A stretch of 64,000 nucleotides of DNA from Muribaculaceae bacterium. Its GTDB lineage: Bacteria > Bacteroidota > Bacteroidia > Bacteroidales > Muribaculaceae. Location of the stretch: contig JAFLTO010000003.1 in assembly GCA_022510425.1 (NCBI GenBank), positions 133,570 through 197,569 on the forward strand. Direction: 5' to 3'. This document shows positions 5,841-32,618 of the stretch, in pieces; the first letter of the stretch is position 1, and each line of letters starts with the position of its first letter. A model generated the notes under the pieces. The model was given only the letters and a program-made list of their open reading frames with translations, did not search any database and was not told the DNA's origin. The translations under genes were made by a program, and so were the position numbers.

Positions 5841-5962
5841 ATAAAATATTTTAAGGTTATTGATATCTTTCATGAATCCCTCAACCCTTCTCCTTTATTA
5901 CTTATCTTTCGCAAATTAATAAAAATTTTCCGAAAAATAAAAGATTATTCGTTGGAAATAAT

Positions 5963-9868: not shown

Positions 9869-11389
9869 ATGAAAAAAACTCTACTTACCCTTGCTGCTGT
9901 AGCTATCTCAGTAGGTGCGTGGGCACAAGACAACGCCGGCTTGATCGACGTAACTCCCAATTATTACAATTTTAACAAGATCAATTCTACTCAATTGACT
10001 TCAATCCTTCGTTCTGATGTTCGTCAACCGGTTCCTTTCAATCTTGGAGGTGATAACTGGATTACATCAAATACCAATGGCGGTGAAAATTATTTCACTT
10101 CAGAACAGATTGCTAATGGTAACATTCTTTTTGGTGCTTTTGTTTACAACCAGTCAAAAGAAGCTGAATTTGCTAAAGCTTTCTCTCTATTAGATTTAGG
10201 TGGCAACCTTGGCCAAGTATTAGTTCTTAATGGACAGAATTCAAACTTGAACGAAGCAGTTCAGGAGGCTTGTGGTCTTGATGCAGCTCCCGAAATTCCG
10301 GCTTACCAAGGTGCTTTCGGTGCTAATTTCCAATATAACCATATTTTGGATTTCGAATCAATGAATAAATATGTCTTGGAAGCTAACCCGGGTCTTACTG
10401 CTGCTGATCTTTTGGAACAGGCTGAAGATGCAAAAATCACTCCAATCCGTATCAGAATCAGAGTTGAAATGAACGCATATAATAATGACATGTCTAAAGA
10501 ACTAAGTATTGTAAATACCACATTCTTACAGAACGAAGCAGGTAATGCAATTGGTTTTGATGTTATGGATCCAGATAACTTCACTTATGTAGATGTGTCT
10601 CAGTTCTCGGAAAATGGTGTTTGGAATCCAAACCTTTGGCTCGTTCGTGAGTGGGATGTAGACTACACAGGTATCGCATCCTACATAAAATTCTTAGGCA
10701 CTAATACTGATTCAGATTTCGATAATGGTGCTCTCCTTGTTCGTAGTTTGAAAGTATTCGTACTTCCAGAAGGCGAAGAATCTTATCCTAATTACACTAA
10801 AGTAATAGACGGTGTAACTAAAGAATACAAATTTTCTACATTCCATGACACTTTAGTTGACTATTCAGAAGTAGCTGTTGAACCGGCTTATCCTGAAAAC
10901 CTCTATATGATGGGTAATATCGTTAATAATTCCTGGAATCCTTCTGCTGCAGTAGCTCCTGAATCTGCTGAAGACGGTGTGTTCACTTTCACAGATATCG
11001 AACTTTATAACACAGCAACTGATCCCGCTTTCTTTACTTTCATCAATACTCTTAGCGACAATTGGGATTTAATCAATGACGGTTCTCACCGTTATGGTCC
11101 TGCTGAAGGTCAAAATGGTGCTGTTAATGTAGGCCAGTCTGATATCAAGTTCGCTCTCGGTGGTGACACTTCTTTCAATATTGCAAATGGTACATACGAT
11201 TTTGTTGTAGATTTCAACACTATGACAATCGCAATTTCTGAAGCCGGTTCAGTTGGTGTTAAGACAGTTATCGATTTCAATGCTCCGGTTGAATACTACA
11301 ACCTCAATGGTGTGAAGGTTGCTAATCCTGACAAGGGTATCTACATTATCCGTCAGGGCAACACAACAAAGAAAGCTGTTATCCGTTAA
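9869..11389 (+). CDS. T9SS-sorted secreted protein: domain X (subtype a) + SusE/F-like or CBM-like beta-sandwich + T9SS tail
   Basis: Signal peptide ..GAWA|QDN. Domain X motifs: DVTPNYYNF, LLDLGGNLGQVLVLNG, WNPNLW (10622-10639), LLVRSLKVF. Region ~10897-11245 (NLYMMGNIVNNSWNP...GTYDFVVDFNTMTIAIS) resembles SusE/SusF-type glycan-binding domains. Tail: PVEYYNLNGVKVANPDKGIYIIRQGNTTKKAVIR. Confidence 0.75.
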   Translation: MKKTLLTLAAVAISVGAWAQDNAGLIDVTPNYYNFNKINSTQLTSILRSDVRQPVPFNLGGDNWITSNTNGGENYFTSEQIANGNILFGAFVYNQSKEAEFAKAFSLLDLGGNLGQVLVLNGQNSNLNEAVQEACGLDAAPEIPAYQGAFGANFQYNHILDFESMNKYVLEANPGLTAADLLEQAEDAKITPIRIRIRVEMNAYNNDMSKELSIVNTTFLQNEAGNAIGFDVMDPDNFTYVDVSQFSENGVWNPNLWLVREWDVDYTGIASYIKFLGTNTDSDFDNGALLVRSLKVFVLPEGEESYPNYTKVIDGVTKEYKFSTFHDTLVDYSEVAVEPAYPENLYMMGNIVNNSWNPSAAVAPESAEDGVFTFTDIELYNTATDPAFFTFINTLSDNWDLINDGSHRYGPAEGQNGAVNVGQSDIKFALGGDTSFNIANGTYDFVVDFNTMTIAISEAGSVGVKTVIDFNAPVEYYNLNGVKVANPDKGIYIIRQGNTTKKAVIR

Positions 11390-11505: not shown

Positions 11506-13986
11506 ATGAAGAAACTCTTGTTGGCATCAGCCTTATCAGCTGTTGCTTTGGGCGCATTGAATGCACAGGTGATCAACCGGGCAATTCAATTCTCGCCGGA
11601 AGGAACCGTTGATTGTGGTGCGATGCCTGATTTAGACAATTTAAGGTCCTATTCTTTGCAATTTTGGCTTAATCCTAATTCATGGTCCGAAAATGCCAAT
11701 ATAATTAGTCGCGGTGACAATTTTGTAGTTAAATTAGGTCCTCAAAACACTATCCGTTTCATAAACGGTGAAAGTGAAGTAGCTGCCTCCCATAAAGAAC
11801 TTAAAACCGGTGAATGGTCACAGGTAACACTTATCTGCGACGACGGTAAAGCTCAAATCCTTGTCAACGGCATGTATGCCGGTGATGGCTCTCTATCCGG
11901 TGTGGAAAAATCGGATGCATCTATTATATTGGGTGGTCAATATTCCGGTCTTCTCGATGAAGTAAGGATTTGGAATGATGCCCTCGATGATGAGATGGAC
12001 TCTTTCGATTATTTCATCTTCAATACCCTCAATAAGTGGAATCCTATGTGGGATAACTTGATCGCTTATTATAAGATGGATCAAGAAAATTGCCCATATC
12101 TTGTCGACTATAAAGGTATTGATGAAAAATTGAAACCTTACGACAACCACGGTATTATGTTGCAAGGTGTTGAAAAAGTTGAAGCGAACAATGATAAGAT
12201 GCCTTATCTTATCAATTCGGCCTATACAAACAATGAGAGATTTTTCGACCGCATAATTCCGCGTGAACAATATCTTTTAAGCAATGACTTGATCATTTTA
12301 GGTGTCAATGTTTATGCTTACGACGGTCATCTCGAGACAAAATCTCCCAATAATCATGCCATATCTTTAAAAAACACCGAATATCTATCTGAATTCCAGG
12401 GTAGGAATGGAGTATTGTCTTTCAATGGTTCCGCTTCAATGGAATTGCCTGCCTCCATGTTCCCCGTAAATGATGTGTATACTTTCGAATCATGGCTTTA
12501 TATAGATGATTGGACTCCCGGTGCATATTTATTAAGGAAGGAAAATGAAAATCAGACCATTGGTATTGCAGTTTATTTAGGTGAAGAGGATCAGAAACGA
12601 GTCCTTGTCAGAATTAATGGCAAAGTCTATGCTTCAACGCTCGATGTTTCTCTTCCTGTGGGACAATGGGTGCACTTCGGTTTTTGCACCGGTCTAAACG
12701 TTGACCTCCCTAATACTTTCTATTTCTTCAAAGATGGGAGGAGATATAATTGTGACGATAAAACTGATTTGACCACCGGTGAAAAAGGAAAGGCAAATAC
12801 ATTTATCAATGAAGATTCTGCTGCTTTCCCTCTTCTTTTAGGAGAGAATTTTAAGGGAAAACTTGATGAAACTCTTTTATGGAAACAGGATTTACCTGCA
12901 TCAACAGTTTCCAGTCATAAAACAAAAGTTCCGATGCCGGGTCTCGACAACACGGTGAGTGCTACGACTTTCCAAAACAGTCTTGGATATTATAATTATG
13001 ATGATCCGGAGGATTTGGGATTCAGCAGCCATTCACAAGATTCATGGCTTAAAATCATGAAATCAGCTTATGAAGGTCATGCCGGCGTGAAATTCACAAT
13101 TTCTGTGATGGGTTCATATACTCCGGGAGCTGAATTTGGTGATTGGAGAGATATACTCGGTGACGAGTCAAAACGTCAAAGATTTGCCTCAGATTTAGCT
13201 GAGATTTCCAAGAATTATGACGGGGTGGAACTTGACCTCGAATGGATTGAGAAAGCCGGCCAATGGTCGGACTACGGTTTGTTGGCCAAAGAAATAAGGG
13301 AAAAACTTCCTGAAGGCAAGGAATTCCGAATCTCTTTGCACAACAGTTATACCGGTTTCCCTGTGGACTATCAGGATTATGTTGATGGTTTCACTTTCCA
13401 ACAATATGGTCCGCAAGCTACAAATTTCAGTTACAGAAATTTTACTAGTAATGTACATAATTTCATAACTAAATTTGATCGCAACAAGATAATGACTTCT
13501 TATTCCACCACAACTTCCAAGGGTGCCAACGGTGCTGCGGTAATTGGTGTTAAGGGGGACTGTCTTGAAAGTTATGTTCCAAGTGAGGCTGATTCAGATA
13601 AATACACCAACGATGCAGGGGAAACCTGGACATATATGGGTCCGATGCAAGTGTATCGTCGCGCCCAATATACTCGCGAAAACAATCTGCAAGGTATTTT
13701 CTATTGGGACATGGGGAATGACTATTGGTTAGGCACTGCAGCTAACCCCGAAATGCCTGTCTATAACCAGGCAAAATATTGCAGCTATGCCATCAATGCA
13801 AACAACGATACGATCGTTACCGATCTCTCGGTTAATCATTACATTCCGGCCGGTGTAGGAATAATCAACAATGAAATTTCCGGTCCGGTTGAGTACTATA
13901 ACTTGCAAGGAATCAAAGTTCAACGTCCTGAAAAGGGTATCTATATCCGAAAGGAAGGTTCCTCAACACGCAAGGTAATCTTTTAG
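11506..13986 (+). CDS. T9SS-sorted LamG-LamG-GH18-like protein, paralog 2
   Basis: Signal peptide ..ALNA|QVINRAIQF. LamG hallmarks (SYSLQFWLNP, LLDEVRIWNDAL; KGKLDETLLW). GH18-like motifs YDGVELDLEW (13219-13245), FTFQQYG, GIFYW. Tail: PVEYYNLQGIKVQRPEKGIYIRKEGSSTRKVIF. Confidence 0.78.
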   Translation: MKKLLLASALSAVALGALNAQVINRAIQFSPEGTVDCGAMPDLDNLRSYSLQFWLNPNSWSENANIISRGDNFVVKLGPQNTIRFINGESEVAASHKELKTGEWSQVTLICDDGKAQILVNGMYAGDGSLSGVEKSDASIILGGQYSGLLDEVRIWNDALDDEMDSFDYFIFNTLNKWNPMWDNLIAYYKMDQENCPYLVDYKGIDEKLKPYDNHGIMLQGVEKVEANNDKMPYLINSAYTNNERFFDRIIPREQYLLSNDLIILGVNVYAYDGHLETKSPNNHAISLKNTEYLSEFQGRNGVLSFNGSASMELPASMFPVNDVYTFESWLYIDDWTPGAYLLRKENENQTIGIAVYLGEEDQKRVLVRINGKVYASTLDVSLPVGQWVHFGFCTGLNVDLPNTFYFFKDGRRYNCDDKTDLTTGEKGKANTFINEDSAAFPLLLGENFKGKLDETLLWKQDLPASTVSSHKTKVPMPGLDNTVSATTFQNSLGYYNYDDPEDLGFSSHSQDSWLKIMKSAYEGHAGVKFTISVMGSYTPGAEFGDWRDILGDESKRQRFASDLAEISKNYDGVELDLEWIEKAGQWSDYGLLAKEIREKLPEGKEFRISLHNSYTGFPVDYQDYVDGFTFQQYGPQATNFSYRNFTSNVHNFITKFDRNKIMTSYSTTTSKGANGAAVIGVKGDCLESYVPSEADSDKYTNDAGETWTYMGPMQVYRRAQYTRENNLQGIFYWDMGNDYWLGTAANPEMPVYNQAKYCSYAINANNDTIVTDLSVNHYIPAGVGIINNEISGPVEYYNLQGIKVQRPEKGIYIRKEGSSTRKVIF

Positions 13987-14130
13987 AATAATAACAATTA
14001 AAAACCAATAAAAACAACCAAACTATCGGCATGATGCAAGGTAAGAAGACCCCCTAAACAATGAATTTTAATAGTTAAGGAGTCTTACTTACGTGCTTGA
14101 TCAAAACATTCATCGGGTGAAAACCTAATG

Positions 14131-14171
14131 AACCAACACAAATCAAATTTTTAATTAACCAACACAAATCA
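14131..14171 (+). repeat. 15-nt perfect direct repeat AACCAACACAAATCA (14131-14145 and 14157-14171) ending 1 nt before the giant ORF start codon
   Basis: Read directly from the sequence. G-free A/C-rich leader. Confidence 0.8.
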
Positions 14172-14172
14172 C

Positions 14173-17100
14173 ATGAAAAAACTCTTACTAACATTGGGAG
14201 TCGCGGCACTCACAGTCGGAGCTTGGGCTGTGCAGACACTTGCCACCGATATCCCTGAAACGTTTGAAGATGTTACACCAACATACTTCAAATTTTATGA
14301 AGGTAATACTGATCTTTCTAAAATGATAAGAACAGATATCCCCTCTCCCGCTCAAGCAAATTTAAAAAACACAAATGGTAACTTTATTTCCTCTAATACA
14401 GATACTGTTGGATCATTATTTTCTCGTTCAAAATTATCAGAAGGTAATTTAATTTTTGGAGGTGCTTATTGGAGAACTCAAGAGGAATTAGCTAAAGGTT
14501 TTTCTTTAGTTAAATTAGGAGAGGAAATTGGAGAAGTATTGGTATTAAATGGTCATCAATCCGATTTAGTCTCAACTCTTAAAGCATTAGGGCTAAATGA
14601 AAATCCAGAGGTTTCCTCAATGGAGGCTGCTTTTAGTGGTAATCTACAACTTTTCTGGGTTTTAGATAATATTCAAATTAAGAATCTTAAATATCCGTAT
14701 TTAAAAATAAAAGTTGAGTTAAATGCTTTTAATAATAAACAAAGTTTGGAAAAGGAAGCTCTTAACTCAATAACTTTTGTTACAGAGGCAGGTAATCCTT
14801 TTGGAGAAGAAAAAAAAGTTTGTTTTAATGAATTTTTGAAAGACAATTCTAATGAAGAATGGGATCCTTATAAGTGGATGGTATACGAATTTTACATTGA
14901 TAAGAAAGATATAGGATCTTATTTAAGAATGTTTATAAATGATTCACTTTCAGACTTAAATAATGGAGCATTGTTAATACGTAGTATTGAAGTTTACGGT
15001 GTCTCTGAAATAGCATCTGATATTACTAAAGATTCTGTAAATAAAACTTGGAATGACTATACTCCTGAAACTGTAAAAAACGGTAATTATAAAATAACGC
15101 AAGAGAAAAATGTAATAACTTTCACTTTCGATAAAGAATTTAAAAAAGTAGGTGAGGATTCTGAAATTACTGTTTCAAATGCTCCAAGCGGATTGACTCC
15201 ATCCATTAATGTTGATGAAGCTAACAAAACTATAACAGTTACATTAACTGATTTCCCGGCAAAGGAATATAAAATTAATATCCCTGAAGGTTTCGTAAAA
15301 TTCGGTCCTTTCGAAATCAATGAAGCCATTTCTGAAACTATCACTATAGGGAAGGAGTATGAAACCGGAACTGTTGCCCCTCTTCAGGGAGACCAAATCG
15401 GTTTCACGGTTACTTATTCTAAGGATATTACAAACCTCCAGCCTACTGGGCAGATAACTTTAACCCCAAAAACTCCGGTAACAACTCAACCTTCTCTCAA
15501 GAAAACTCAAAACGGTAATGTTCTGACCGTTACTTTGGACGGAGGTGAAGCAGCTGTTTATACTGTTACTATACCTAAAGATTATTTTACTCTCGATGTT
15601 AATCTTTTCAGCGATAAAGTTTCTCAGGAACTGACTGTTGAAAAGAAATATGAAACCGGAACTGTGGCTCTTCTTGAAGGAGATAAAATAGGTTTTACGG
15701 TTACTTATCCTATGGATATAATTGAACTCTTGACAGGTGAAATCAAAGTGGAACCAATTAAGTCAGCTACCAATCTTCCAGCTGCCAAGCCCACTAAAGA
15801 AGGTAAGGTTCTAACAGTTGTTTTGGAAGGCGGTGACCCGGGTGATTATACTGTGACTGTTCCAAAAGAATATGTTAAACTTGGCGTAAATCTTTTCAAC
15901 AATGCCGCTACAAAAACTCTTAACGTTCCGGAAACAGGTAGTAACCCTTCTGTCCCCACAGAGCCTGAAACTCCGGAAGATGTTGTTGGAACCAACATAA
16001 CTCCCAAAAGTTATCATTTCGGAACTACAACAAATCTCCCTTTGCATCCGGAATATATTAATGTACAAAATATCGTAAAGGAGACCAATGATGTTTATTC
16101 CGATGCTAATCTTGCTTCTTCATATGAAGACGGCCTTATCGTTGTTTCAACCGGAGGAGGTCAAAGTGCAGTTGAACAATCTGATTTTAGAAACTCACTT
16201 CAATTGATCAATCTTGGTGGTGAAGTTGGAAATGTTTTGTTCTATGGAACAAAAGGTTCAGGAATTGTAAATGTTCTTAAAAACAAGGCTTCTGATTTTA
16301 CAACAGAATGGGACAAAATAAGTGTCAACCCCAGTACAAACAGGAATTGGCAATTGAATTTCTTTATGCCTCCCACATATACTCAAACAAATGGAAATTA
16401 TGTTCATTGTAGAGTAATTTATAATGTTTTTTCTGCAAATTCAGACTTAACAAAGGCCCCATTCAATAATATGGGTATGATTAAGAATAACAATGCGGCC
16501 GATGCTTCATTTACAAACTCGGGTAAAGATAAAGGAATAATTACTTTTGCAGATAATGATTGTTATACAGATGGTGAATGGGATCCTACTAAATGGCAAG
16601 TTGTAGAATTTGATTTCACTAATGACGGAAATGTACCTTATCGATTTAGAATTGACGTTCCAGGTCCTACTTATTGGGATAATTTGGCTCTCTTTATCAA
16701 GGACATTAAATTTACTGAAGTAAAGGGTGATTATACCGGTTCAAACATCAAGAAATACAGTGTAACATATAAAGATCCCTTCACTTACACTCTTGGTGAT
16801 CAAATTATAACAAGGACTAAGAGAATTCCGGTTGTTAATGAACTGGGTGAGCAAAGTGAAGAAAAAGGTTTCACACTTTCATTTGACGGTGATCTTTATC
16901 AAGGTACAGGAGAAATTACAATAACTACAACGGAAAATGTTACTACGAAACCGCAAGTAAAATCGATAATTAAAGGTAAAACACTCACCGTTACTCTCGA
17001 AGGAGGTGACGCTGCAGAATATACAGTTACAGTTCCGGAAGGATTTGTAAATATCAGTAACCATTCTTTCAATGCTCCGGTTAAACAAATAATTACTATA

Positions 17101-20100
17101 AATAATAATTCTGAAGATCAGGATGATCCGAATTATCCTAAAGTAAATCCGGGTACTGACATCACTCCGGCTAACTATAACTTCAATGATCCAAAAGCAA
17201 TCCTTCCAATCCACCCAACCGGAAAAGTTGATAACGTAAATCTTGGAGCTTCTGCTTGGAAGGCCTTGAATTGTAGTGATTACTGGGATAATGGCTTGAT
17301 GGTGGTTTCTTCCGGAGGAGGATTAACTCAAGTTCAACACGATGCCTTTAAGAATGCATGGAATTATGTTGATTTTGGTGGTAAAGTTGGTCGAGTAGCA
17401 TGTTATATTAACCGAGGATCAACGGCCATTGAGGATCTTAAGAAACTTAATTCTATTGAAGCCTGGGATGATTTAAATAAAAATACCCAAGTATTTAGTG
17501 GTGGTGCTTTGAATTTCTATTTAGATCCAGATCCTAAGAATACTCCTAAAACAGGTTATATCCATGCAAAAATAGTCTTCAATGTTGATGATTTAAATGA
17601 AAGTGTCGCTAATGGAGTTATTTTACAAAATATCAATGTTAGAGATGACTTGAATAACAATGAATGTTCAGGTTTTGTCTTGGATCCTATAACAGGTGAA
17701 AAAGTAAATGTATTAAAGAATGAATTTACCACTAATGGGAAATGGGATCCTACTAAATGGATGACATATGAATTTGATTTTAAAGTGGATGGAACCGATA
17801 AGTCAGCTGACCTCAGTCAACTTCCGGTTAGAATAAAAATGTTCTTCCAAGGATCTCAAGCAAATAACACTTCTGCTATTTTCTTCAAGGAGATTTCTTT
17901 CACTCATGTCGATGATGCTGATCCTACTATGTTAGGGAAAGTTTATCAGAAGATGGAGACTTTGGAAATCGGTACTCCGAAGATTTCTTTCATCCCGGCC
18001 GAAAAAATGGCTGCAAGCAGTGTTAACGTAAATGAAAATGTCTTGACTGCTACTTTTGATCAAAACATCACATTGGATGAAACTAAATCTGTAACTATTT
18101 CTCCTTCTTCCACAACAGGAAAATTGGACGTGAAGGTTAATGATAAATCTATTGTCGTTACTTTGACTGATTATCCTTACTATACTTATACTGTGACAAT
18201 ACCGGAAGGTTTTGTTAAAGTTGGTGACAAGGGAATAAATGAAGAAATTGTCCAAGAAATTGAAATCTCTGCTCCAAAAGTCAAAGACAAGGAATATTAC
18301 TTCCCGTCTGCACTCGATATTCCAGCAGGTTATATAGACATGACTCCTTCTTATTATAAATTCTATAATGGGAAAACCGATTTGGATAAGATGTTGAGAA
18401 ATGATATTAATTCTCCGACTGCAACCAATTTGGGAGGTGATTACTTTATCACTAACAATATGGGAGATGGTAAATATTTCAATAACGATAATTTGTCAAA
18501 AGGCAACTTGATTTATAAAGCCGGCATGTATCAAAATGATAAGGATAATGACAGATTACGCAGTGCATTCTCTCTCTTTGATTTTGGTGGTAATGTAGGT
18601 GAAGTATTGGTGCTCAACGGTAAGAATTCAAAGTTGAATGAAGCTATTGCTGAAAACTTTAATCTCCAGACATCCTACAATATTTCCAAACCTGCCGGAG
18701 ACTTCATGAATATGCAGTTGATGTGGCTTCTTGACAATCCAAAAATGAATTCAAATCTCATTAATGGAAATTATACAGTGCATGTAAGAATGGAACTTAA
18801 CATGTACAACAACAATATGGCCACTGAATATCCATTAATGTCTAATATGTATCTGCAAAGACAAACAGGTACAACTGCAGCTGAATTTGACTTAAATGAT
18901 AAGTTCATTGATGAGTTCACCTATAGAGTAAATGAGGAATCTTACAAAGAGGGAGAATTCAATGTAAATAAGACTGATAAATGGAACCCCTATCGTTGGA
19001 TGGTTTTAGATTTTGAAACCGATTACAATCGTGTGGTTTCCTACTTGCGTACATTCTTGCAATCCAACCAAATGAAGGATCATTCAAATGGTGCTTGGCT
19101 TATCCGTAGTATAGAAATATATGGTATACCTTCTAATGTTACTTCTACTTATGAAAAGAATAAGCTTTACACTTCTTGGAATGAATATAAAGCGAGTGAT
19201 TTTATAGTAAAAGAACCTACTCCTGAACAAGCCAAGGAGGATCCAAGCGAGAAATCAATTGTAGAGAATACTATTCCGGGTGATAAAGTTGAAAACGAGG
19301 CTTCTTTCAACGGATTCCAGGATGATAAAGACCATGAAAATTCATGGACAATTGAAGACGCCAAGGTAGCCAAATATTATTACTATAACGTTTCAACCGG
19401 TAAGAACGTTACTTTGGCTGATGAAGCTACCAAAGATGTGGTTAAAGTTGATGCGAATACAATCACAATTTCTGCTCCTGCAGATATGGGTACAGAATAT
19501 CACCATGGCATTGTAAGAATCAATACAGGCATCGAGATTCAGGAAGGAGCTACCTACAACTTCTCGGCTCAAGCTACCAAAGTTGCTTCTACCCGTGCGG
19601 CTGCTAATGTTCCCGATATCCTCGTGAAACTTACTGCAGAAAGTAGCAATGCCACTTCAGGTCTTGCCAACAAGACAGAAAACGGTGTTCATTATCTCTC
19701 TAATGCAGAACTCACAGCAGGAAATCTTGTTCTTGAAATCCATTTCGGTGGTGCAGAGAATGCCGGAAATGACATAACCTTGAGCAATATAACCCTGGCT
19801 CAATTGACAGAAGGATCTTCCGGTGGAAACAATTCCGGTGGAAATCCGGGTGTCGGAGATGAAGGTGGTTTCATTCCGGGTGATTATTCCGGAGAACCTA
19901 CAGTGAACCGTGCAATGCAGTTTACTCAGTCAGGCACTGTTACTTGTGGTGCGATACCGGAACTCAACAACCTATCTTCATATTCAATCCAATTCTGGAT
20001 GAAGCCGCAAGAATGGGAGGAAGGTGCCACATTGCTCCGCAGAGGTGACAACTTCTCTGTTGAACTCGGAGAAAATCACAATATTGTCTTCAAGAATTCA

Positions 20101-22452
20101 GACAATGAGGTTATTGCAAAAGGATTGTTGGCCAATGAATGGAACCAGGTAACTTTAATGGTCAACAAAGGGCAAGCAACTGTATTAGTTAACAGTGTCA
20201 ACGGTGGTAGCGGTACACTCGGTACTCTTGAAGAGACCAAACGACCCTTCATCATGGGTGGCGGATATGTAGGTCTTCTCGATGAAGTGCGTCTATGGAA
20301 CGATGCTTTGAGCAACAACGATTTGATGACAAGATTCGATTATTTCACCAACAACACCCTCAACAAGTGGAACCCGATGTGGAATAACCTGGTGGCATAT
20401 TATAAGATGGACCAGGAAGCTGCTCCACAGGTAATCGAATATAAAGTTCTTGAGAACCGTAAAGCCGACGGTACCAACAACCATGGTGTTATTTCAGAAG
20501 TAGGTGTTCAGAGGGTATTGGCAAACAACGAAAAGATGCCTTACCTCATCAACGCAGCTTATACTGAGAACGAACGTTTCTACGATCGTCTCATCCCGCA
20601 GGATGCTTATCTCCTAAGCAACGAGATAATTGTGCTTGGTGCTGATTGTCAAGCTTCAGACGGTAGCGTTAAGACAAGACTTGGTAACAACCACGCTTCA
20701 ATATATGGCGGAGTTTCTTATGCAAGTATCGGTGGCAGAACAGGTGTAGCATCGTTTGATGGTAAGAGCGGTTCTTATATTCAGGCTCCGGCAGGTATCG
20801 TTCACTCATACACTGCCGACGGCAATTCATATAACTCGGACTACAAGACCTATTCATTCCTGTTCCGTATATATATAGACACCTGGCAGCCCGGTGCTTG
20901 CATCTTCAGTAATGAAAATTCTGCCAAGACAGCCGGTTTTGCGGTATTGTTGGGTGACTCACCCAAGACTCTTACTATCAGAGCCAACGGTAAGACCAAC
21001 ACTACTAAGGTCATGGACAAATTCAATCTTGGCGGATGGAACCATATTGCAATCGTTCCCAACGCCAGTTCTCGTTCAGCAGCAACCAAATATGATCTCT
21101 ATGTTGGTGCCACCAAGTGCGATTTCGATGCATCAGCAAGTGCAATCGAAGATATAGCATTGGCTAATGTAGTATCAAATCCTGCAAAGATTGGTGAAGG
21201 ATTCAAGGGTTATCTCGATGAGATGTACTTCTCTAACCAGAGTCTCGGTCTCGGTATGATCCAGGCATATGCCAACAGGGTTATCGTACCGACGGTTGAA
21301 CAAGGTAGAAACGTGGCCGAGATGAATGCGTCCGGATTCCTCTACAACTTTGACAATCCAAGAAATCTTGGTTACAGCTCCTTCTCACAAGACTATATTG
21401 CAGACTATATCCGCAGTCTCTATAGCGGTTATTCACCGGCGAAGGTAGTTCTCTCAGTAAGAGGACACAACGAAAGCGGCAAGTCTGACAATTTCTCAGA
21501 AATATGGGGCAATGACACCAAGGTAAGGAAATTCGCTCAGGATCTGATCAACGCGGCATCAAACTACGACGGTGTGGAATTCGACCTTGAATGGTGTCAG
21601 AATGCAACTCAATGGAGCAATCTGTCAAAACTTTCAGACGCAGTTGAGGCATTGTTGCCGGCCGGAAAGACATTCCGTATCTCTGTGCATGCTGCATATT
21701 ATGACTTCCCGAAAGCTAAGATAAACCATAACAATATCACAGGTTTCACAGTTCAGCAGTATGGACCGAACGCCACATTCTATCCCTATTCAACGTTCAC
21801 CAAGACTCTGAAAGATATGGAATCATATGGATATCCCAAGGATAAGGTTATGCCTTCATTCTCTACTACAATGCAAGGAGGAGGAGACATCAGAGGAGGC
21901 GCTTTCGCTAACTACAAGTTGAACGACAATGATGTTGACACATATAACGGAATGAGCTTCATGGGCCCGATGCAAATATTCAAACGTGCACGTTATGCCC
22001 GTGAAAACAACTACCAAGGTATCTTCTACTGGGCTATGGGTAACGACTACTGGTTAGGAGATAAGAATATGGGTAGCGGCGGTGTTGCTAATTACCAAGG
22101 TATGCCGGAATTTAATGGAGCCAAGTATTGCAGCTACGGTCTGAACGCTAACGTGGACAGAGTTGTGCTTTCAGCTAAGATTTCTCATCCCGACACCGAA
22201 TATGCCGAAGGAGAGGAAGTGGTAATTCCAGATCTTGATGACGAATTCGGCGACAATGTAGGAGATAATCCAGGTGATGATGACAATAACGGAGATACTT
22301 CTAACGTTAACTCACTTGATAGCGTAGAATACGTGGATGTTTACACTATCGGCGGAGTCCTAATCAAGAAGAATGCAGTTAAGTCTGAATTGAACAACCA
22401 ACTCGAAAAGGGTATCTACATTATTGATGGCAAACAAACTTTAGTTAGATAA
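14173..22452 (+). CDS. Giant (2,759 aa) T9SS-sorted modular surface protein: 4x domain X, 5x Ig-like spacer repeats, CBM4/9-like domain, LamG-LamG-GH18-like module (paralog 3), acidic linker, T9SS tail
   Basis: Single uninterrupted ORF with signal peptide MKKLLLTLGVAALTVGAWA. Domain X copies lie at ~14245-15003, 15991-16727, 17152-17910 and 18331-19128, each with a W(D/N)PxxW motif. Five repeats end in ..TVTL(T/D/E)..Y(T/K)(V/I)(T/N)(V/I)P(E/K)(G/D/E)(F/Y). The GH18-like motif YDGVEFDLEW is at 21568-21594. The tail is ..VDVYTIGGVLIKK...LEKGIYIIDGKQTLVR. Confidence 0.85.
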   Translation: MKKLLLTLGVAALTVGAWAVQTLATDIPETFEDVTPTYFKFYEGNTDLSKMIRTDIPSPAQANLKNTNGNFISSNTDTVGSLFSRSKLSEGNLIFGGAYWRTQEELAKGFSLVKLGEEIGEVLVLNGHQSDLVSTLKALGLNENPEVSSMEAAFSGNLQLFWVLDNIQIKNLKYPYLKIKVELNAFNNKQSLEKEALNSITFVTEAGNPFGEEKKVCFNEFLKDNSNEEWDPYKWMVYEFYIDKKDIGSYLRMFINDSLSDLNNGALLIRSIEVYGVSEIASDITKDSVNKTWNDYTPETVKNGNYKITQEKNVITFTFDKEFKKVGEDSEITVSNAPSGLTPSINVDEANKTITVTLTDFPAKEYKINIPEGFVKFGPFEINEAISETITIGKEYETGTVAPLQGDQIGFTVTYSKDITNLQPTGQITLTPKTPVTTQPSLKKTQNGNVLTVTLDGGEAAVYTVTIPKDYFTLDVNLFSDKVSQELTVEKKYETGTVALLEGDKIGFTVTYPMDIIELLTGEIKVEPIKSATNLPAAKPTKEGKVLTVVLEGGDPGDYTVTVPKEYVKLGVNLFNNAATKTLNVPETGSNPSVPTEPETPEDVVGTNITPKSYHFGTTTNLPLHPEYINVQNIVKETNDVYSDANLASSYEDGLIVVSTGGGQSAVEQSDFRNSLQLINLGGEVGNVLFYGTKGSGIVNVLKNKASDFTTEWDKISVNPSTNRNWQLNFFMPPTYTQTNGNYVHCRVIYNVFSANSDLTKAPFNNMGMIKNNNAADASFTNSGKDKGIITFADNDCYTDGEWDPTKWQVVEFDFTNDGNVPYRFRIDVPGPTYWDNLALFIKDIKFTEVKGDYTGSNIKKYSVTYKDPFTYTLGDQIITRTKRIPVVNELGEQSEEKGFTLSFDGDLYQGTGEITITTTENVTTKPQVKSIIKGKTLTVTLEGGDAAEYTVTVPEGFVNISNHSFNAPVKQIITINNNSEDQDDPNYPKVNPGTDITPANYNFNDPKAILPIHPTGKVDNVNLGASAWKALNCSDYWDNGLMVVSSGGGLTQVQHDAFKNAWNYVDFGGKVGRVACYINRGSTAIEDLKKLNSIEAWDDLNKNTQVFSGGALNFYLDPDPKNTPKTGYIHAKIVFNVDDLNESVANGVILQNINVRDDLNNNECSGFVLDPITGEKVNVLKNEFTTNGKWDPTKWMTYEFDFKVDGTDKSADLSQLPVRIKMFFQGSQANNTSAIFFKEISFTHVDDADPTMLGKVYQKMETLEIGTPKISFIPAEKMAASSVNVNENVLTATFDQNITLDETKSVTISPSSTTGKLDVKVNDKSIVVTLTDYPYYTYTVTIPEGFVKVGDKGINEEIVQEIEISAPKVKDKEYYFPSALDIPAGYIDMTPSYYKFYNGKTDLDKMLRNDINSPTATNLGGDYFITNNMGDGKYFNNDNLSKGNLIYKAGMYQNDKDNDRLRSAFSLFDFGGNVGEVLVLNGKNSKLNEAIAENFNLQTSYNISKPAGDFMNMQLMWLLDNPKMNSNLINGNYTVHVRMELNMYNNNMATEYPLMSNMYLQRQTGTTAAEFDLNDKFIDEFTYRVNEESYKEGEFNVNKTDKWNPYRWMVLDFETDYNRVVSYLRTFLQSNQMKDHSNGAWLIRSIEIYGIPSNVTSTYEKNKLYTSWNEYKASDFIVKEPTPEQAKEDPSEKSIVENTIPGDKVENEASFNGFQDDKDHENSWTIEDAKVAKYYYYNVSTGKNVTLADEATKDVVKVDANTITISAPADMGTEYHHGIVRINTGIEIQEGATYNFSAQATKVASTRAAANVPDILVKLTAESSNATSGLANKTENGVHYLSNAELTAGNLVLEIHFGGAENAGNDITLSNITLAQLTEGSSGGNNSGGNPGVGDEGGFIPGDYSGEPTVNRAMQFTQSGTVTCGAIPELNNLSSYSIQFWMKPQEWEEGATLLRRGDNFSVELGENHNIVFKNSDNEVIAKGLLANEWNQVTLMVNKGQATVLVNSVNGGSGTLGTLEETKRPFIMGGGYVGLLDEVRLWNDALSNNDLMTRFDYFTNNTLNKWNPMWNNLVAYYKMDQEAAPQVIEYKVLENRKADGTNNHGVISEVGVQRVLANNEKMPYLINAAYTENERFYDRLIPQDAYLLSNEIIVLGADCQASDGSVKTRLGNNHASIYGGVSYASIGGRTGVASFDGKSGSYIQAPAGIVHSYTADGNSYNSDYKTYSFLFRIYIDTWQPGACIFSNENSAKTAGFAVLLGDSPKTLTIRANGKTNTTKVMDKFNLGGWNHIAIVPNASSRSAATKYDLYVGATKCDFDASASAIEDIALANVVSNPAKIGEGFKGYLDEMYFSNQSLGLGMIQAYANRVIVPTVEQGRNVAEMNASGFLYNFDNPRNLGYSSFSQDYIADYIRSLYSGYSPAKVVLSVRGHNESGKSDNFSEIWGNDTKVRKFAQDLINAASNYDGVEFDLEWCQNATQWSNLSKLSDAVEALLPAGKTFRISVHAAYYDFPKAKINHNNITGFTVQQYGPNATFYPYSTFTKTLKDMESYGYPKDKVMPSFSTTMQGGGDIRGGAFANYKLNDNDVDTYNGMSFMGPMQIFKRARYARENNYQGIFYWAMGNDYWLGDKNMGSGGVANYQGMPEFNGAKYCSYGLNANVDRVVLSAKISHPDTEYAEGEEVVIPDLDDEFGDNVGDNPGDDDNNGDTSNVNSLDSVEYVDVYTIGGVLIKKNAVKSELNNQLEKGIYIIDGKQTLVR
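15352..15933 (+). repeat. Two tandem in-frame 291-nt (97-aa) units inside the giant ORF (Ig-like spacer repeats R2 and R3)
   Basis: KEYETGTVAPLQGDQIGFTVTY.. versus KKYETGTVALLEGDKIGFTVTY... An identical 17-mer TATGAAACCGGAACTGT occurs at 15358-15374 and 15649-15665, exactly 291 nt apart. Confidence 0.85.
19291..19806 (+). other. CBM4/9/22-like carbohydrate-binding-type domain within the giant ORF (approximate borders)
   Basis: ENEASFNGFQDD..NSW...IEIQEGATYNFSAQATKV....LVLEIHFGG..GNDITLSNITLAQL follows the typical pattern of CBM_4_9-type jelly rolls. Called by eye only. Confidence 0.45.
19897..22190 (+). other. LamG-LamG-GH18-like module of the giant ORF (approximate borders), colinear with the 743-aa and 826-aa paralogs
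   Basis: Shared blocks: VNRAMQFTQSG.., FDYFTNNTLNKWNPMWNNLVAYYKMDQ, MPYLINAAYTENERF, YDGVEFDLEW, FRISVH, GFTVQQYGPNA, MGPMQIFKRA, GIFYW. Confidence 0.75.
22270..22449 (+). other. Putative T9SS C-terminal sorting domain of the giant ORF, preceded by an Asp/Gly/Asn-rich linker
   Basis: Linker: PDLDDEFGDNVGDNPGDDDNNGD. Tail: SVEYVDVYTIGGVLIKKNAVKSELNNQLEKGIYIIDGKQTLVR. Confidence 0.6.
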
Positions 22453-22466
22453 ACACTCTTTATAAT

Positions 22467-22508
22467 CCGAAAGCCTCGTTGCCGGGGCTTTCGGTACTAA
22501 TTTTTATT
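22467..22508 (+). terminator. Rho-independent-type terminator (9-bp stem CCGAAAGCC / GGCTTTCGG, 10-nt loop, then TACTAATTTTTATT)
   Basis: Inverted repeat at 22467-22475 and 22486-22494, 15 nt after the stop of the giant ORF, followed by a T-rich run. Confidence 0.65.
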
Positions 22509-22691
22509 GTATATGTATTGTATATTCAAAAAATTTCATTAATTTTAGCAAATAATTACAATAATTTATAGAAGTTCTAATTTTAACCAATAATTCCAAA
22601 TTAATGACAGAAAGTTAATGCACAATTCTACTTCATATTTCAATACTGAAAAATGAAGTTCCCGTAAAGAAATCACAAATCAACCAACATT

Positions 22692-23258
22692 ATGAAAAAA
22701 ATCTTTTACTTAATCGCGGCAGTTGGAATCACATGGGGAATCGTCTCATGTGACAACGAGCCGAAAAATCCCGGAGACTACTCCGTAAAGAGCGAGCTCT
22801 CCATTGGGGATGTAGTATCCCAGGTCAATGGGCAGGTATATGCGCTTCAGGTTGCCAAATCAATCGACAGCGTGTTTACAAACAAAGTCACAGCGTATGA
22901 CACCATCTGGGATGAAAACGGTAATTTCGTGAGCAGAGAGGGTAGGGAAGTAATAATTCCTTCTAAGTTCACTACCAAGTACGTCGAATATGAACCAATC
23001 ATGGTGCCTGCTGAAGCCGACACATTTGAAATTCATGTCACTTCAAATGCTAAGTGGTTCCTTTCTACCGCTTCCTATAGAGGTAGCTCCACTTTTTATA
23101 ACATCAATTCCGGTGGTGGAGGTAACGGAACACTTCTTTTCCGTTCTGCTATAAACAGAAACGGAACAAGAAAAGTGGCCGCAGACTTAAATGTCTACAC
23201 TTCCGACAGTACTATTTATCATAAAGTGACACTTCTTCAGGAAGGACTTGCCAATTAA
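22692..23258 (+). CDS. Small lipoprotein with a C-terminal BACON-like domain
   Basis: Lipobox GIVS|C followed by an acidic D-N-E. The C-terminal half (FEIHVTSNAKWFL....GNGTLLFRSAINRNGTRKVAADLNVYTSDSTIYHKVTLLQEG) follows the BACON domain pattern. There are 20 nt to the susC start. Confidence 0.65.
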   Translation: MKKIFYLIAAVGITWGIVSCDNEPKNPGDYSVKSELSIGDVVSQVNGQVYALQVAKSIDSVFTNKVTAYDTIWDENGNFVSREGREVIIPSKFTTKYVEYEPIMVPAEADTFEIHVTSNAKWFLSTASYRGSSTFYNINSGGGGNGTLLFRSAINRNGTRKVAADLNVYTSDSTIYHKVTLLQEGLAN

Positions 23259-23278: not shown

Positions 23279-26200
23279 ATGAAAAGATTCTATATAACTT
23301 TAATAGGCGTCTTGGTATCTCTCGGGATGTATGCAGATGTCTTAGTGACCGGTACGGTGTATGAACCTTCCGGAGATACAGCTATCGGCGCCACCGTAAT
23401 GGAGAAAGGACAGCCATCAAAGGGAACAGCTACCGATATTGATGGTAATTTCCAACTAAACGTTTCATCTCTACAAGCCACACTCGTGGTTTCATACATC
23501 GGTATGCAAACCCAAGAAGTGAAACTAGATGGCCTTAACCATATTGAAGTTCATCTCAAAGATGATAATGTAACTCTCGATGAACTCGTTGTTGTGGGTT
23601 ACGGAACTCAGAAAAAAATCAATGCCACAGGTTCTGTTAGAACTATCGACAGCGAAGTGCTCGAATCTCGTCCGGTAACCAACGCCGTTCAAGGTCTCCA
23701 GGGTGCGGTAGCCGGTCTTAACATTACCAACGACTCAGGTGGTGGTCTCGGTGAAACCATGAACATCAACATCCGTGGTGTCGGTTCTATCGGTGACGGC
23801 TCTAACTCTTCGCCGCTTATCCTTATCGACGGTATGGAAGGTGACCTCTCCACAATCAACCCCAACGATATCGAAAACATCTCAGTATTGAAGGATGCCG
23901 CAGCAGCTTCTATCTATGGTTCTCGTGCTCCTTTCGGTGTGATTCTCGTTACTACAAAAGGCGGTAAGAAAGGTACAACGGTAAACTATAACGGTAACTT
24001 CCGTTGGAATAAACCTACCAACGTGCCTCATGTGCCGGATTCATACACCTATGCTCTCATGATGAATGATGCATATATCAATACCGGTGGTAATGCTGTT
24101 TATGGTTCTGCCAAACTGGAGAAAATGAAACAATTCCAGGCCGGCATTTTAAAATATGGTACCGATACCAGTGCTCCGGGTTCAATCTATGACTGGATGG
24201 GACAAACTAACACTTGGGGTAATACTAACTGGTATGACGTGCACTTGAAAAACACTACATTCTCCCAGGAACACAACGTGAGTGTTTCCGGCGGTGGAGA
24301 CATGGTGACTTATTATTTCTCAGGTAACTACCTCGGACAGGACGGTCTTTTCCGTTATGCAGATGAAAAATATCAACGTCTTGCTTTGACCGGTAAAGTA
24401 AACGTTACTTTCAATAAATATGTTCAGTTCCTTTGGACATCTCGTTACATCGCTACTGACAATACCAAACCTTCTGTGTTGAACTCTATGTTCTTCCACC
24501 AGTTGAGCCGTATGGCACCAACCCTTCCTTTGTACACCACTTATGATGAATACGATCCTTCATCTTATGTGCAACAACTAAGAGACGGTGGTCGTCAAGA
24601 TCAAAAAACTCAACAGATATACAACCAAGGTAACCTTACCATCACTCCTATAAAAGATTGGCAGATTCATGCTGACATCAGCAGCCGTATCGAACACAAT
24701 CCTTATACACGTGAATTCAAACCGGTTACTTATACAATGCGTGACGGTTCTTCAGGTTTTATCAACTTGGGTGACCAGCAGAACTCATTTCGTAGAATCC
24801 GTGATAACGGTACTTTCTACGTAGACCCCGCAGCAGGTGAAAGCTATTACGAAAAGGCCAATACCTATATCAATTACTTCAGTACCAACTTCTATACTGA
24901 CTATAGTCTCTCATTCGGAGAAAATAATTTCAAATTCCTCCTCGGTGTTCAGACTGAAAGTTATAGCGAAGAGATCACACGTGTCGCATCCTGGGACATC
25001 CTTCTTCCTGACACTCCTTTCATTCCTTCCGACAATGGAGGAGGTAGTACCATGTCTTCAGAAAGCAAAGGAAAATGGACTTCTGTAGGTATTTTCGGCC
25101 GTATCAACTATAACTACAACGACCGTTATATGGCAGAGGTTAACCTCCGTGGTGACGGTGCTTCTCGTTTCCCGAAGAACCAACGTTGGGGTGTGTTCCC
25201 TTCTTTCTCAATAGGTTGGAACATCGCTAATGAAAAATTCTGGGAACCGGCATATCATGTGATGAACTACTTCAAACTCCGTGCTTCTTACGGTCAGTTG
25301 GGTAACCAGAACACAACTTCTTTCTATCCGTTCTATCAGAAGATGTATACCACCGGTGGTACTGTTATCTTAGGTGACAACCAGGCAACTCTGCTTCCAA
25401 TCTTCGATCCATATTCTACTTCTCTTACATGGGAAAGAATCGAGAACGTAGGTGCCGGTGTTGATTTCGCATTCTTCAACAATCGTCTCCAAGGTTCATT
25501 CGACTGGTACCAACGTACAACCAAAGACATGATTGGTCCGGCTTACGCTTTGGCAGCTGTTTATGGTGCGAACGCTCCTAAGACCAATAATGCTGAATTG
25601 AGAACCCGCGGTTGGGAATTGGAACTCTCTTGGAGAGATAATATCGGTAAGGATTTCAGTTATTCAATTTCCGCTTCTCTCTCTGACTACCAAACAGTCG
25701 TTACCAAGTATGATTCTCCCAATAACTCTATCGATGGATGGTATCAAGGTAAGAACTATGGTGAAATCTGGGGTTACAGTGTCGTAGGTATCGCCAAGAG
25801 TGATGAAGAAATGGCAGCTTGGCTGGCTCAACACAATCAAGATAAGATCCCGACAGCAGCACAGGGTACTTCTACATGGGGAGGTGGTGACCTTATGTAT
25901 GCCGACCTTAATAACGACGGAAGTGTAGATCCGGGTACACGTACTCTCGACAACCATGGTGACCTTCGAGTAATCGGTAACAACACTCCAAGATACGCTT
26001 ACAGCTTCACTCTTGATTTCAAGTGGAAATTCATTGATTTCAGAGCTTATTTCCAAGGTATCGGAAAACGTGACTACTTTATCAGCAATGGCGGTAATAT
26101 CGGAGGTGCTACTTTCTTCGGTTTCCAGGGAGGCGCTTATCAGAACGCTCTTTATCTGGAACAACTCGACTATTTCCGTTATGCCGGTGCAGAACTGGGT

Positions 26201-26524
26201 GCTAACTTTGAGAATCCTTACTATGGTCGTATGAGATATGATGACTATAATACTCAATGTTCCGACAGGTTTATTCAGGATGCTTCCTATCTTCGTTTGA
26301 AGAACTTGCAGGTAGGTTTCAGCCTCCCGGGAAAAACCCCGATCTCAAAATATGTGAAGAAGGCAAGAATTTATTTCTCTGCAGAAAACCTCTTTACAGT
26401 GACAAAACTTAAAATATTCGATCCGGAAGCATTGAAGACTAACGATACTGAATATTCAGGTGGTGCCGGTAAGGTTTATCCTCAATATCGCACATTCTCA
26501 ATGGGTCTCGAACTCACATTCTAA
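23279..26524 (+). CDS. susC: SusC/RagA-family TonB-dependent outer-membrane transporter
   Basis: Signal peptide, then a carboxypeptidase-regulatory-like domain (VTGTVYEPSGDTAIGATV..GTATDIDGNFQL), the plug motif LDELVVVGYGTQKK, 1081 aa, and a terminal ..FSMGLELTF. No STN-type N-terminal extension. Confidence 0.95.
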   Translation: MKRFYITLIGVLVSLGMYADVLVTGTVYEPSGDTAIGATVMEKGQPSKGTATDIDGNFQLNVSSLQATLVVSYIGMQTQEVKLDGLNHIEVHLKDDNVTLDELVVVGYGTQKKINATGSVRTIDSEVLESRPVTNAVQGLQGAVAGLNITNDSGGGLGETMNINIRGVGSIGDGSNSSPLILIDGMEGDLSTINPNDIENISVLKDAAAASIYGSRAPFGVILVTTKGGKKGTTVNYNGNFRWNKPTNVPHVPDSYTYALMMNDAYINTGGNAVYGSAKLEKMKQFQAGILKYGTDTSAPGSIYDWMGQTNTWGNTNWYDVHLKNTTFSQEHNVSVSGGGDMVTYYFSGNYLGQDGLFRYADEKYQRLALTGKVNVTFNKYVQFLWTSRYIATDNTKPSVLNSMFFHQLSRMAPTLPLYTTYDEYDPSSYVQQLRDGGRQDQKTQQIYNQGNLTITPIKDWQIHADISSRIEHNPYTREFKPVTYTMRDGSSGFINLGDQQNSFRRIRDNGTFYVDPAAGESYYEKANTYINYFSTNFYTDYSLSFGENNFKFLLGVQTESYSEEITRVASWDILLPDTPFIPSDNGGGSTMSSESKGKWTSVGIFGRINYNYNDRYMAEVNLRGDGASRFPKNQRWGVFPSFSIGWNIANEKFWEPAYHVMNYFKLRASYGQLGNQNTTSFYPFYQKMYTTGGTVILGDNQATLLPIFDPYSTSLTWERIENVGAGVDFAFFNNRLQGSFDWYQRTTKDMIGPAYALAAVYGANAPKTNNAELRTRGWELELSWRDNIGKDFSYSISASLSDYQTVVTKYDSPNNSIDGWYQGKNYGEIWGYSVVGIAKSDEEMAAWLAQHNQDKIPTAAQGTSTWGGGDLMYADLNNDGSVDPGTRTLDNHGDLRVIGNNTPRYAYSFTLDFKWKFIDFRAYFQGIGKRDYFISNGGNIGGATFFGFQGGAYQNALYLEQLDYFRYAGAELGANFENPYYGRMRYDDYNTQCSDRFIQDASYLRLKNLQVGFSLPGKTPISKYVKKARIYFSAENLFTVTKLKIFDPEALKTNDTEYSGGAGKVYPQYRTFSMGLELTF

Positions 26525-26545
26525 TAACTACATTAACTGAAAAAG

Positions 26546-30224: not shown

Positions 30225-30303
30225 TGAATAGGAGTGATTGAATACAAGAAATAAGGGAAATACGTCAAAAAACTCTTACTACACCTAAACACCAATAATC
30301 TTA

Positions 30304-32574: not shown

Positions 32575-32576
32575 AG

Positions 32577-32618
32577 TTGAAAGATAAAATTAAAATTGAA
32601 AGATAATAGGAAAGATAA
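32577..32618 (+). repeat. Three direct copies of GAAAGATAA (TTGAAAGATAA x2, GGAAAGATAA x1) filling the GH20-GH2 spacer
   Basis: Copies at 32577-32587, 32596-32606 and 32609-32618. The last A of the third copy is the A of the GH2 ATG (32618). Confidence 0.8.

Follow-up and report, generated by a model that had tools for sequence, protein, structure and literature searches.

In a 64-kb window of a Muribaculaceae genome (the whole stretch of 64,000 nucleotides analysed here, positions 133,570 to 197,569 of contig JAFLTO010000003.1, assembly GCA_022510425.1), one gene codes for a giant protein of 2759 amino acids, in which four copies of an undescribed domain, here named X, precede a module assigned to glycoside hydrolase family 18 (GH18). 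The reading favoured here, with modest confidence, is that the giant is a secreted multimodular GH18 enzyme carrying a multivalent glycan-capture arm, that its substrate is a host glycan containing 6-O-sulfated galactose or N-acetylglucosamine (Gal/GlcNAc), and that it derives from the old fusion of a gene pair. The architecture would best be read as a "bind and cut" device of the cell surface.

Organization of the giant gene

The gene (14173..22452, + strand) starts with ATG and contains no internal stop codons, in agreement with a preliminary description of this DNA, which had reported a single, uninterrupted open reading frame (ORF) of 8.28 kb. The identical protein is present in NCBI as a hypothetical protein from a Muribaculaceae metagenome-assembled genome (MAG), with locus tag J1F67_02930. 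Its domains were mapped by self-BLAST and by hidden Markov models (HMMs) made from the copies present in the window itself; the resulting order is signal peptide, X, three immunoglobulin (Ig)-like repeats, X, Ig, X, Ig, X, a domain named D, a linker, two LamG domains, the GH18 domain, an Asp-rich linker and a C-terminal tail. This map reproduces the architecture proposed in the preliminary description, and the coordinates given there for a carbohydrate-binding module (CBM; 19291-19806) and for the enzyme module (19897 to about 22190) agree with the mapped boundaries.

All the features are on the + strand. The translation begins with a predicted Sec signal peptide, MKKLLLTLGVAALTVGAWA (14173..14229), followed by X copy 1, of subtype a (aa 24-292; 14242..15048; X HMM E 6e-95), and by Big_5-like Ig repeats 1-3 (aa 301-400, 400-497 and 498-589; 15073..15939), which were recognized by self-BLAST, by the Ig HMM and by weak matches to Pfam Big_5/CopC. 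X copies 2 (aa 598-863; 15964..16761; E 1e-99) and 3 (aa 986-1252; 17128..17928; E 1e-97), both of subtype b, are separated by Ig-like repeat 4 (aa 885-985; 16825..17127; self-BLAST, Pfam and Ig HMM); repeat 5 (aa 1272-1367; 17986..18273; Pfam Big_5 match at aa 1281-1349) then precedes X copy 4, again of subtype a (aa 1381-1668; 18313..19176; E 9e-112), which was modelled with AlphaFold. Domain D (aa 1691-1895; 19243..19857), a CBM4-like β-jelly-roll according to its predicted model and Foldseek, is connected by the linker GSSGGNNSGGNPGVGDEGG to the LamG-LamG-GH18 enzyme module (aa 1911-2675; 19903..22197; Pfam and family profile), whose catalytic motif YDGVEFDLEW (aa 2465-2474; 21565..21594) includes D2471 and E2473, forming the D-x-E signature. 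The protein ends with a putative sorting tail of the type IX secretion system (T9SS) class (aa 2715-2759; 22315..22449), detected with C-terminal domain (CTD) HMMs built from the paralogues.

Ig repeats 1-3 share 28-42% identity by self-BLAST. Big_5 (PF13205) passes its gathering cut-off of 23.6 bits when the whole protein is scanned (30.5 bits), while single repeats scanned in isolation score 20.9-23.4 bits, at or just below the threshold. The G+C content of the N-terminal array is 35-38% (14001-20000), as compared to 45% for the enzyme module (20001-22000) and about 40% for the paralogous upstream genes; this contrast could reflect amino-acid composition, relaxed constraint or a different origin.

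The giant is a real gene. The sequence comes from a MAG, and misassembly is possible in repeat-rich genes; a long ORF might in principle be an assembly or binning artefact, or a pseudogene produced by the chimeric joining of repeats. However, the protein repeats are only 23-42% identical to one another by self-BLAST and no tandem repeat was found at the DNA level in 14000-22600 by Tandem Repeats Finder, which makes a collapse or expansion during assembly unlikely; on the latter finding, recent duplication or assembly expansion was rejected as an origin of the array. Moreover, the frame is open across the whole 8.3 kb, and three further giants, from independent assemblies, have the same core order X-D-LamG-LamG-GH18-tail and syntenic flanks, so that an artefact is extremely improbable.

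The LamG-LamG-GH18 module

Laminin_G_3 (PF13385) matches the giant in two stretches with 70.7 bits (cut-off 27.6; E 1.9e-19), and GH18 (PF00704) matches the fragment aa 2410-2689 with 39.5 bits (cut-off 29.6; E 7e-10); the two paralogues encoded upstream in the window score 47.9 and 34.6 bits with the GH18 model, also above the cut-off. In an alignment of 55 members of the enzyme family G559, D563, E565 and W566 are invariant (numbering of the product of window positions 19897-22449), and the motif of the giant, D2466-G-V-E2469-F-D2471-L-E2473, corresponds to the invariant D-x-E positions. The relationship to solved structures is remote: the single sequence of the module finds no match among PDB sequences, and GH18 structures are reached by family profiles only, at about 1e-10 for a putative chitinase of Bacteroides thetaiotaomicron (3CO4/3FND) and for FjChiB of Flavobacterium johnsoniae (6XYZ), which are followed by ChiB. 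The catalytic motif aligns with DGVDVDLEW of FjChiB. Judged from these sequence comparisons, the C-terminal module is a member of GH18 with an intact D-x-E.

Domain X

No match to domain X was found in Pfam or NCBIfam; its profile retrieved nothing under E 0.98 from the PDB sequences, and a Foldseek comparison of its model with PDB folds gave no match at E ≤ 1e-3. By hhalign, X has no similarity to domain D and LamG/GH18 beyond the CTD, and the possibility that it is a divergent copy of domain D or LamG was rejected on this basis. An exhaustive HMMER search among 1.84 billion representatives returned a small family of just 190 proteins (clusters), mostly 330-400 aa in length; in the 148 representatives that were checked, the N-terminus is signal-like in 126 and a CTD-like tail closes the protein in 123-139. 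Pfam scans of the other multi-domain X proteins revealed hardly any additional domains.

The preliminary description had distinguished two subtypes of X, matching the two small proteins encoded upstream of the giant, and homology far above chance bears this out. The 506-aa neighbour shares 32-35% identity with copies 1 and 4 (subtype a; E 3e-43 and 3e-50; 32% for copy 1), and the 407-aa neighbour shares 25-28% with copies 2 and 3 (subtype b; E 3e-14 and 2e-20; 25% for copy 2). The opposite case, in which the N-terminal array and the small neighbours would be unrelated, was checked, and significant homology, from E 3e-14 to 3e-50, was found instead.

The AlphaFold model of X copy 4, built on a 103-sequence alignment, has a pLDDT of 90.5 and a pTM of 0.91. 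Its weak resemblances in Foldseek are to legume lectins, CBM4-2, the Eph ligand-binding domain and CBM51, and also to one structure of polysaccharide lyase family 7 (PL7); the similarity to CBM4-2 and to the surface glycan-binding protein SGBP-B of B. thetaiotaomicron is likewise weak, with E above 1e-3. Conserved features of the family are the motif D-[IV]-T-P-x-x-Y-x-F, a loop D-L-G-G-x-x-G-x-V and the motif W-D-P-x-x-W-x-V-Y-E-F-D; the alignment has no invariant acidic pair. According to this confident model, domain X would be an undescribed lectin/CBM-like β-sandwich, and it probably binds sugars.

Domain D and the C-terminal tail

The model of domain D has a pLDDT of 78 and gives 39 Foldseek matches at E ≤ 1e-3, the best ones being SGBP-B (7kwc, 7e-7), CBM4-2 (7e-6 to 3e-5), CBM16 and CBM61. 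SGBP-B (7KWB/7KWC) and the CBM4-2 of the Rhodothermus marinus xylanase are β-jelly-roll glycan-binding modules, which domain D resembles in fold; however, sequence identity is just 10-23%, and no Pfam family, CBM_4_9 included, matches domain D up to E 1. The "CBM4/9-like" label of the preliminary description is sustained by the fold and fails at the sequence level; the modelled domain D appears to be CBM4-like at fold level only.

The tail of the giant is recognized by the CTD HMMs of the enzyme family (E 2e-6) and of the X family (E 6e-9). The CTDs of the two families are related to each other with 93% probability by hhalign, many homologues carry a precomputed PF18962 match, and the CTD region of the enzyme-family profile matches 8glk_D. 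No T9SS genes were seen in the 64-kb window, which is the share of the MAG covered.

A conserved gene pair and its fusion

GTDB species genomes were scanned with the enzyme-family alignment, yielding 164 relatives; the best 78 loci were analysed, among which the B. thetaiotaomicron genome is not included, and X genes were located by HMM in the flanks of the enzyme genes. The hosts are Muribaculaceae, Prevotella/Prevotellaceae, Bacteroidaceae, an Alistipes MAG, Paludibacter, Carboxylicivirga and Marinilabiliaceae. An X gene lies on the same strand directly upstream of the enzyme gene in 43 of the 73 cases with at least 1.3 kb of upstream sequence when a strict, CTD-free HMM is used, and in 50 of 73 with a more sensitive family HMM; these loci span Muribaculaceae, Prevotella, Bacteroidaceae, Alistipes, Paludibacter and Marinilabiliales. 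Fusions between X and the enzyme are rare, the single-X gene and the LamG-LamG-GH18 gene being usually separate. The enzyme gene is usually followed by a small lipoprotein gene, SusC/SusD, sulfatases and GH20: among 44 related loci of at least 20 kb, SusC was found in 36, SusD in 34, a homologue of the 188-aa lipoprotein of this window in 31, sulfatases in 27-28 and GH20 in 25. The conserved adjacency of X and enzyme genes, together with the rarity of their fusions, indicates that the giant is the fusion of an otherwise separate, conserved gene pair, and this is the strongest available argument that X functions jointly with this GH18.

Two groups of loci deserve separate mention. A remoter Bacteroidaceae branch of the enzyme (L072, L073, L075, L077, L078, L080 and L081), with 28-30% identity and a length of about 1,045-1,260 aa, has an additional C-terminal region and no upstream X gene; possibly it forms a sub-lineage of its own, with another partner module. 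Four loci (L076, L036, L044 and L033) come from 'cleanbin' genome records that bear the labels Escherichia coli, Gemmiger formicilis, Lachnospiraceae or Oscillospiraceae. Their cassette is nevertheless of the Bacteroidales type, with SusC/SusD and T9SS-like tails, and the contigs have probably been mis-binned.

Other arrangements of the same modules were found in related genomes, where G stands for the LamG-LamG-GH18 module: X-Ig4-X-Ig-X-D-G in P0002 (2571 aa), X-X-X-D-G in P0003 (2049 aa), X-X-Ig-X-D-G in P0007 (matching an ORF of about 2150 aa in locus L005), a minimal X-G fusion in P0166 (1180 aa), and X-Ig-X-D, devoid of the enzyme, in P0012 (943 aa). These fission and fusion variants substantiate the module shuffling that the preliminary description had proposed, and its view of the giant as a mosaic of module families encoded singly upstream is also correct, with homology at E = 0 to 3e-14. 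The giants share the core X-D-LamG-LamG-GH18-tail and differ upstream of it. The enzyme module of the window giant is 72% identical to that of P0002, 67% to P0007 and 64% to P0003, whereas it has 41% identity with its own 826-aa neighbour (over 785 aa, E = 0) and 37% with the 743-aa paralogue (E 7e-148). The fusion is therefore old, and the neighbours are anciently diverged paralogues from which the parts were not drawn; the earlier proposal that the giant is a fusion of the parts encoded just upstream had therefore to be abandoned, since those neighbours are only 25-41% identical to it and its orthologues (64-72%) are found elsewhere.

X copy 3 has a positional orthologue in the second X of P0002 and P0007 (58-59% identity), and X copy 4 is 46-49% identical to the X preceding D-G in the three other giants; copies 1 and 2 have no orthologue closer than 44% and 32%, respectively. 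It is thus the N-terminal half of the array that is specific to the lineage and changes fast. The locus syntenic to this one that encodes P0002 (L001) differs from the window by an insertion at 2376-3816, where a 210-aa ORF and a toxin gene of the AbiEii family separate the first GH18 paralogue from the X genes.

The surrounding locus

The giant gene is part of a Sus-like polysaccharide utilization locus (PUL), defined by an adjoining SusC/SusD pair beside carbohydrate-active enzymes (CAZymes). On its upstream side, the locus encodes a homologue of S1_15-type sulfatases acting on 6-O-sulfated Gal or N-acetylgalactosamine (6S-Gal/GalNAc; 4299..5873, - strand; Pfam, and PDB 7OZC at E 1e-242), followed on the + strand by the 743-aa LamG-(truncated LamG)-GH18 paralogue (5999..8230), with a signal peptide and no CTD, the 407-aa protein with one X of subtype b and a CTD-like tail (8560..9783), the 506-aa protein with one X of subtype a, an extra region and a CTD-like tail (9869..11389), and the 826-aa LamG-LamG-GH18 paralogue with a CTD-like tail (11506..13986). 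Downstream, all on the + strand, are the 188-aa lipoprotein (22692..23258; lipobox Cys20), which is a conserved member of the cassette, the SusC-like transporter and SusD-like protein (23279..28525; Pfam Plug, TonB barrel, CarbopepD_reg_2 and SusD_RagB), and a homologue of S1_11-type 6-O-sulfated GlcNAc (6S-GlcNAc) sulfatases together with GH20 and GH2 enzymes (28650..35032; Pfam; the sulfatase matches PDB 7P24 at E 1e-264, and GH20 matches 6Q63 at 7e-107). The two reference structures are BT3177, an S1_11 6S-GlcNAc sulfatase (7P24), and BT3109, an S1_15 6S-Gal/GalNAc sulfatase (7OZC) (PMC10154620). The PUL further includes genes for a ROK kinase, anSME and NagB-type proteins; mannosidases, fucosidases and sialidases are missing from it.

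Some of these proteins have features of their own. The 743-aa paralogue misses about 40 residues of the second LamG and the sorting tail, retaining the signal peptide and the DLEW motif, and is probably a periplasmic version of the enzyme. The 506-aa X protein contains an extra region of about 130 aa (aa ~330-460) between X and the tail, which matches neither domain D nor Pfam. The 188-aa lipoprotein, whose gene sits between the GH18 gene and SusC, has DNEPK after Cys20 and no Pfam match, and its C-terminal half is BACON-like by eye. Neither a hybrid two-component system (HTCS) nor an extracytoplasmic function (ECF)-sigma/anti-sigma regulator was found next to the PUL in the 64-kb window, the remainder of which consists of housekeeping genes with no PUL regulator; in the related locus L003 an HTCS-type regulator (Response_reg and HTH_AraC) adjoins the sulfatase.

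Proposed mode of action and alternatives

In the favoured reading, the Sec signal peptide and the T9SS-type tail would direct the giant to the cell surface or to the medium, where the N-terminal 1,900 residues, i.e. four X domains, Big_5-type Ig spacers and the CBM4-like domain, may act as a multivalent arm capturing glycans; the LamG domains may also be glycan-binding modules. The LamG-LamG-GH18 module, whose family membership is established, would act as an endo-enzyme, cutting β-GlcNAc linkages by substrate-assisted catalysis. The presumed substrate is a host glycan with 6-O-sulfated Gal/GlcNAc, either keratan sulfate or the poly-N-acetyllactosamine (poly-LacNAc) chains of mucin O-glycans, as suggested by the gene content of the locus and by a 2026 preprint on GH18 enzymes of B. 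thetaiotaomicron. The fragments could then be imported through the adjacent SusC/SusD, and their breakdown would be completed by the two sulfatases (6S-GlcNAc and 6S-Gal), by GH20 and GH2, and by the 743-aa GH18 paralogue that lacks a CTD. As for its evolution, the giant results from the old fusion of a conserved adjacent pair, X-CTD followed by LamG-LamG-GH18-CTD, and its N-terminal array continues to acquire and shed modules.

Several observations weigh against this reading. GH2 is rare in the 10-kb flanks of the related loci. The tail, called T9SS-type in the preliminary description, is homologous to the paralogue CTDs as reported above, but it stays below the cut-off of TIGR04183 (17.5 versus 23 bits; E 0.0029) and has no Pfam (PF18962) match, so that the label holds in the first respect and not in the second. 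GH18 is absent from the Pfam scan of the whole giant, the second Asp of the DxxDxDxE motif is a Glu family-wide, and the nearest solved GH18 relatives (FjChiB 6XYZ and 3FND, at about 1e-10) are chitinase-like. Finally, X, with about 280 aa, exceeds most CBMs in size and bears conserved polar residues, which makes a catalytic role for this domain possible. The chitinase-type character of the closest structures (3co4/3fnd, FjChiB 6xyz, ChiB) would suit a giant with the same architecture and a classical GH18 substrate, namely chitin or its oligosaccharides, or the chitobiose core present in N-glycans, with the sulfatases acting on a different glycan; GH20 and the GlcNAc catabolic genes fit chitin equally well, and a GH18 chitinase that F. 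johnsoniae secretes by the T9SS is encoded in a PUL (PMC5127042). Nevertheless, such a substrate is unlikely: 6S-GlcNAc/6S-Gal-type sulfatases and anSME flank the enzymes here, and sulfatases recur in the long related loci at the frequency given above; the locus lacks the mannosidase, fucosidase and sialidase genes; structures of endo-β-N-acetylglucosaminidases (ENGases) match the enzyme-family profile far worse, at only 7e-3; and the hosts are gut and rumen Bacteroidales.

The missed GH18 in the whole-protein scan and the Glu in the motif, along with the dominance of putative binding modules in the protein, could also be explained by a non-catalytic adhesin or lectin, with a barrel of the chitinase-like-lectin kind serving attachment to mucus. 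GH18 lectins (chitinase-like proteins) typically lose the catalytic Glu; the catalytic D-x-E is instead invariant across the 55 members, and the gene lies within a PUL with downstream exo-enzymes, so that this explanation is very improbable. As to domain X, its size and its conserved polar positions (D13, N43, D94, R161, N167, E237 and D239 in the numbering of X copy 4) would agree with a novel catalytic domain, such as a glycanase or lyase of the jelly-roll type active on the same glycan, in which case the giant would be a multi-enzyme and the X-GH18 pair two cooperating enzymes; GH16 and PL7 also have jelly-roll folds, a PL7 structure is among the weak Foldseek matches, and most genomes retain X as a separate secreted protein. 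However, X has no significant sequence or fold link to any enzyme, the polar positions reach just 66-93% conservation across the family, none being invariant, four tandem copies with Ig spacers are typical of binding modules, and the closest fold resemblances are to lectins and to CBM4 or CBM51. A catalytic X is accordingly held to be quite unlikely, and the capture arm with a single GH18 enzyme, acting on a 6-O-sulfated host glycan, is retained as the preferred reading.

Comparison with known systems and significance

Three GH18 endo-β-N-acetylglucosaminidases of B. thetaiotaomicron, BT1632, BT3050 and BT2825, cleave poly-LacNAc, and for the first two of them the substrates extend to keratan sulfate and colonic mucin O-glycans; BT1632 is reported at the cell surface, and its PUL includes the 6S-Gal sulfatase BT1624, the GH2 BT1626, the GH20 BT1627 and the 6S-GlcNAc sulfatase BT1628 (bioRxiv 10.64898/2026.03.26.714468). 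The GH18 domain and the surface "first-cut" role are common to these enzymes and, as proposed, to the giant. The locus described here, with its 6S-GlcNAc and 6S-Gal sulfatases, GH20 and GH2, has the same gene content as the BT1632 PUL (bt1623-36), as described for the latter. Unlike the giant, BT1632, BT3050 and BT2825 have not been described as having an X array, a LamG-LamG leader or a T9SS tail; the genus Bacteroides is not known to have a T9SS.

F. johnsoniae ChiA, similarly to the giant, is a large multidomain GH18 protein with a T9SS C-terminal domain, and its locus also contains SusC/SusD, GH20 and a second, smaller GH18 (FjChiB); however, its substrate is chitin, the locus has no sulfatases, and the protein, with its two catalytic GH18 domains, is devoid of an X, Ig or LamG array (PMC5127042, PMC7426924). 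The rumen bacterium 'Ca. Paraporphyromonas polyenzymogenes', a gut Bacteroidales known from metagenomes only, has comparably big, multi-module, T9SS-tailed CAZymes; those are cellulases and hemicellulases with known CBMs, whereas in the giant a GH18 is joined to a dominant, undescribed domain (PMC5831590).

Multimodular T9SS-linked CAZymes in PULs were thus already known, from F. johnsoniae ChiA (PMC5127042) and from the rumen 'Ca. Paraporphyromonas' (PMC5831590). The novelty lies in the undescribed domain X itself, in its conserved association, within Bacteroidales PULs that bear sulfatases, with a LamG-LamG-GH18 subfamily that is so far uncharacterised, and in the natural fusions by which the two are linked. 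Muribaculaceae and Prevotella are dominant, mostly uncultured gut bacteria whose mucin foraging is poorly known, and GH18 enzymes cutting the backbone of keratan sulfate and mucin O-glycans were first reported in 2026, for B. thetaiotaomicron only. The present locus points to a separate, widely distributed GH18 subfamily with a LamG-LamG leader, which travels across Bacteroidales together with the undescribed secreted domain X and with 6-O-sulfatases.

The natural fusion provides a testable hypothesis for the function of X, which is a candidate for a new carbohydrate-binding family, and it offers constructs that biochemists can use directly; the finding would gain in interest if X were shown to constitute a new family that binds sulfated host glycans, or to be a novel enzyme. 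It is only tentatively proposed, as a possibility still open to considerable doubt, that X founds a new family binding host glycans, possibly 6-sulfated LacNAc (less likely a catalytic fold), and that the cassette to which it belongs is a widespread, T9SS-dependent one for keratan sulfate or mucin. If this is true, the X-LamG-LamG-GH18-lipoprotein-SusC-SusD cassette would represent a T9SS-dependent way of harvesting keratan sulfate and mucin, widespread in Prevotella, Muribaculaceae and other gut Bacteroidales and parallel to the surface enzymes and binding proteins that are lipoprotein-based in Bacteroides; the giant, as a natural fusion, would then prove the partnership between X and its enzyme.

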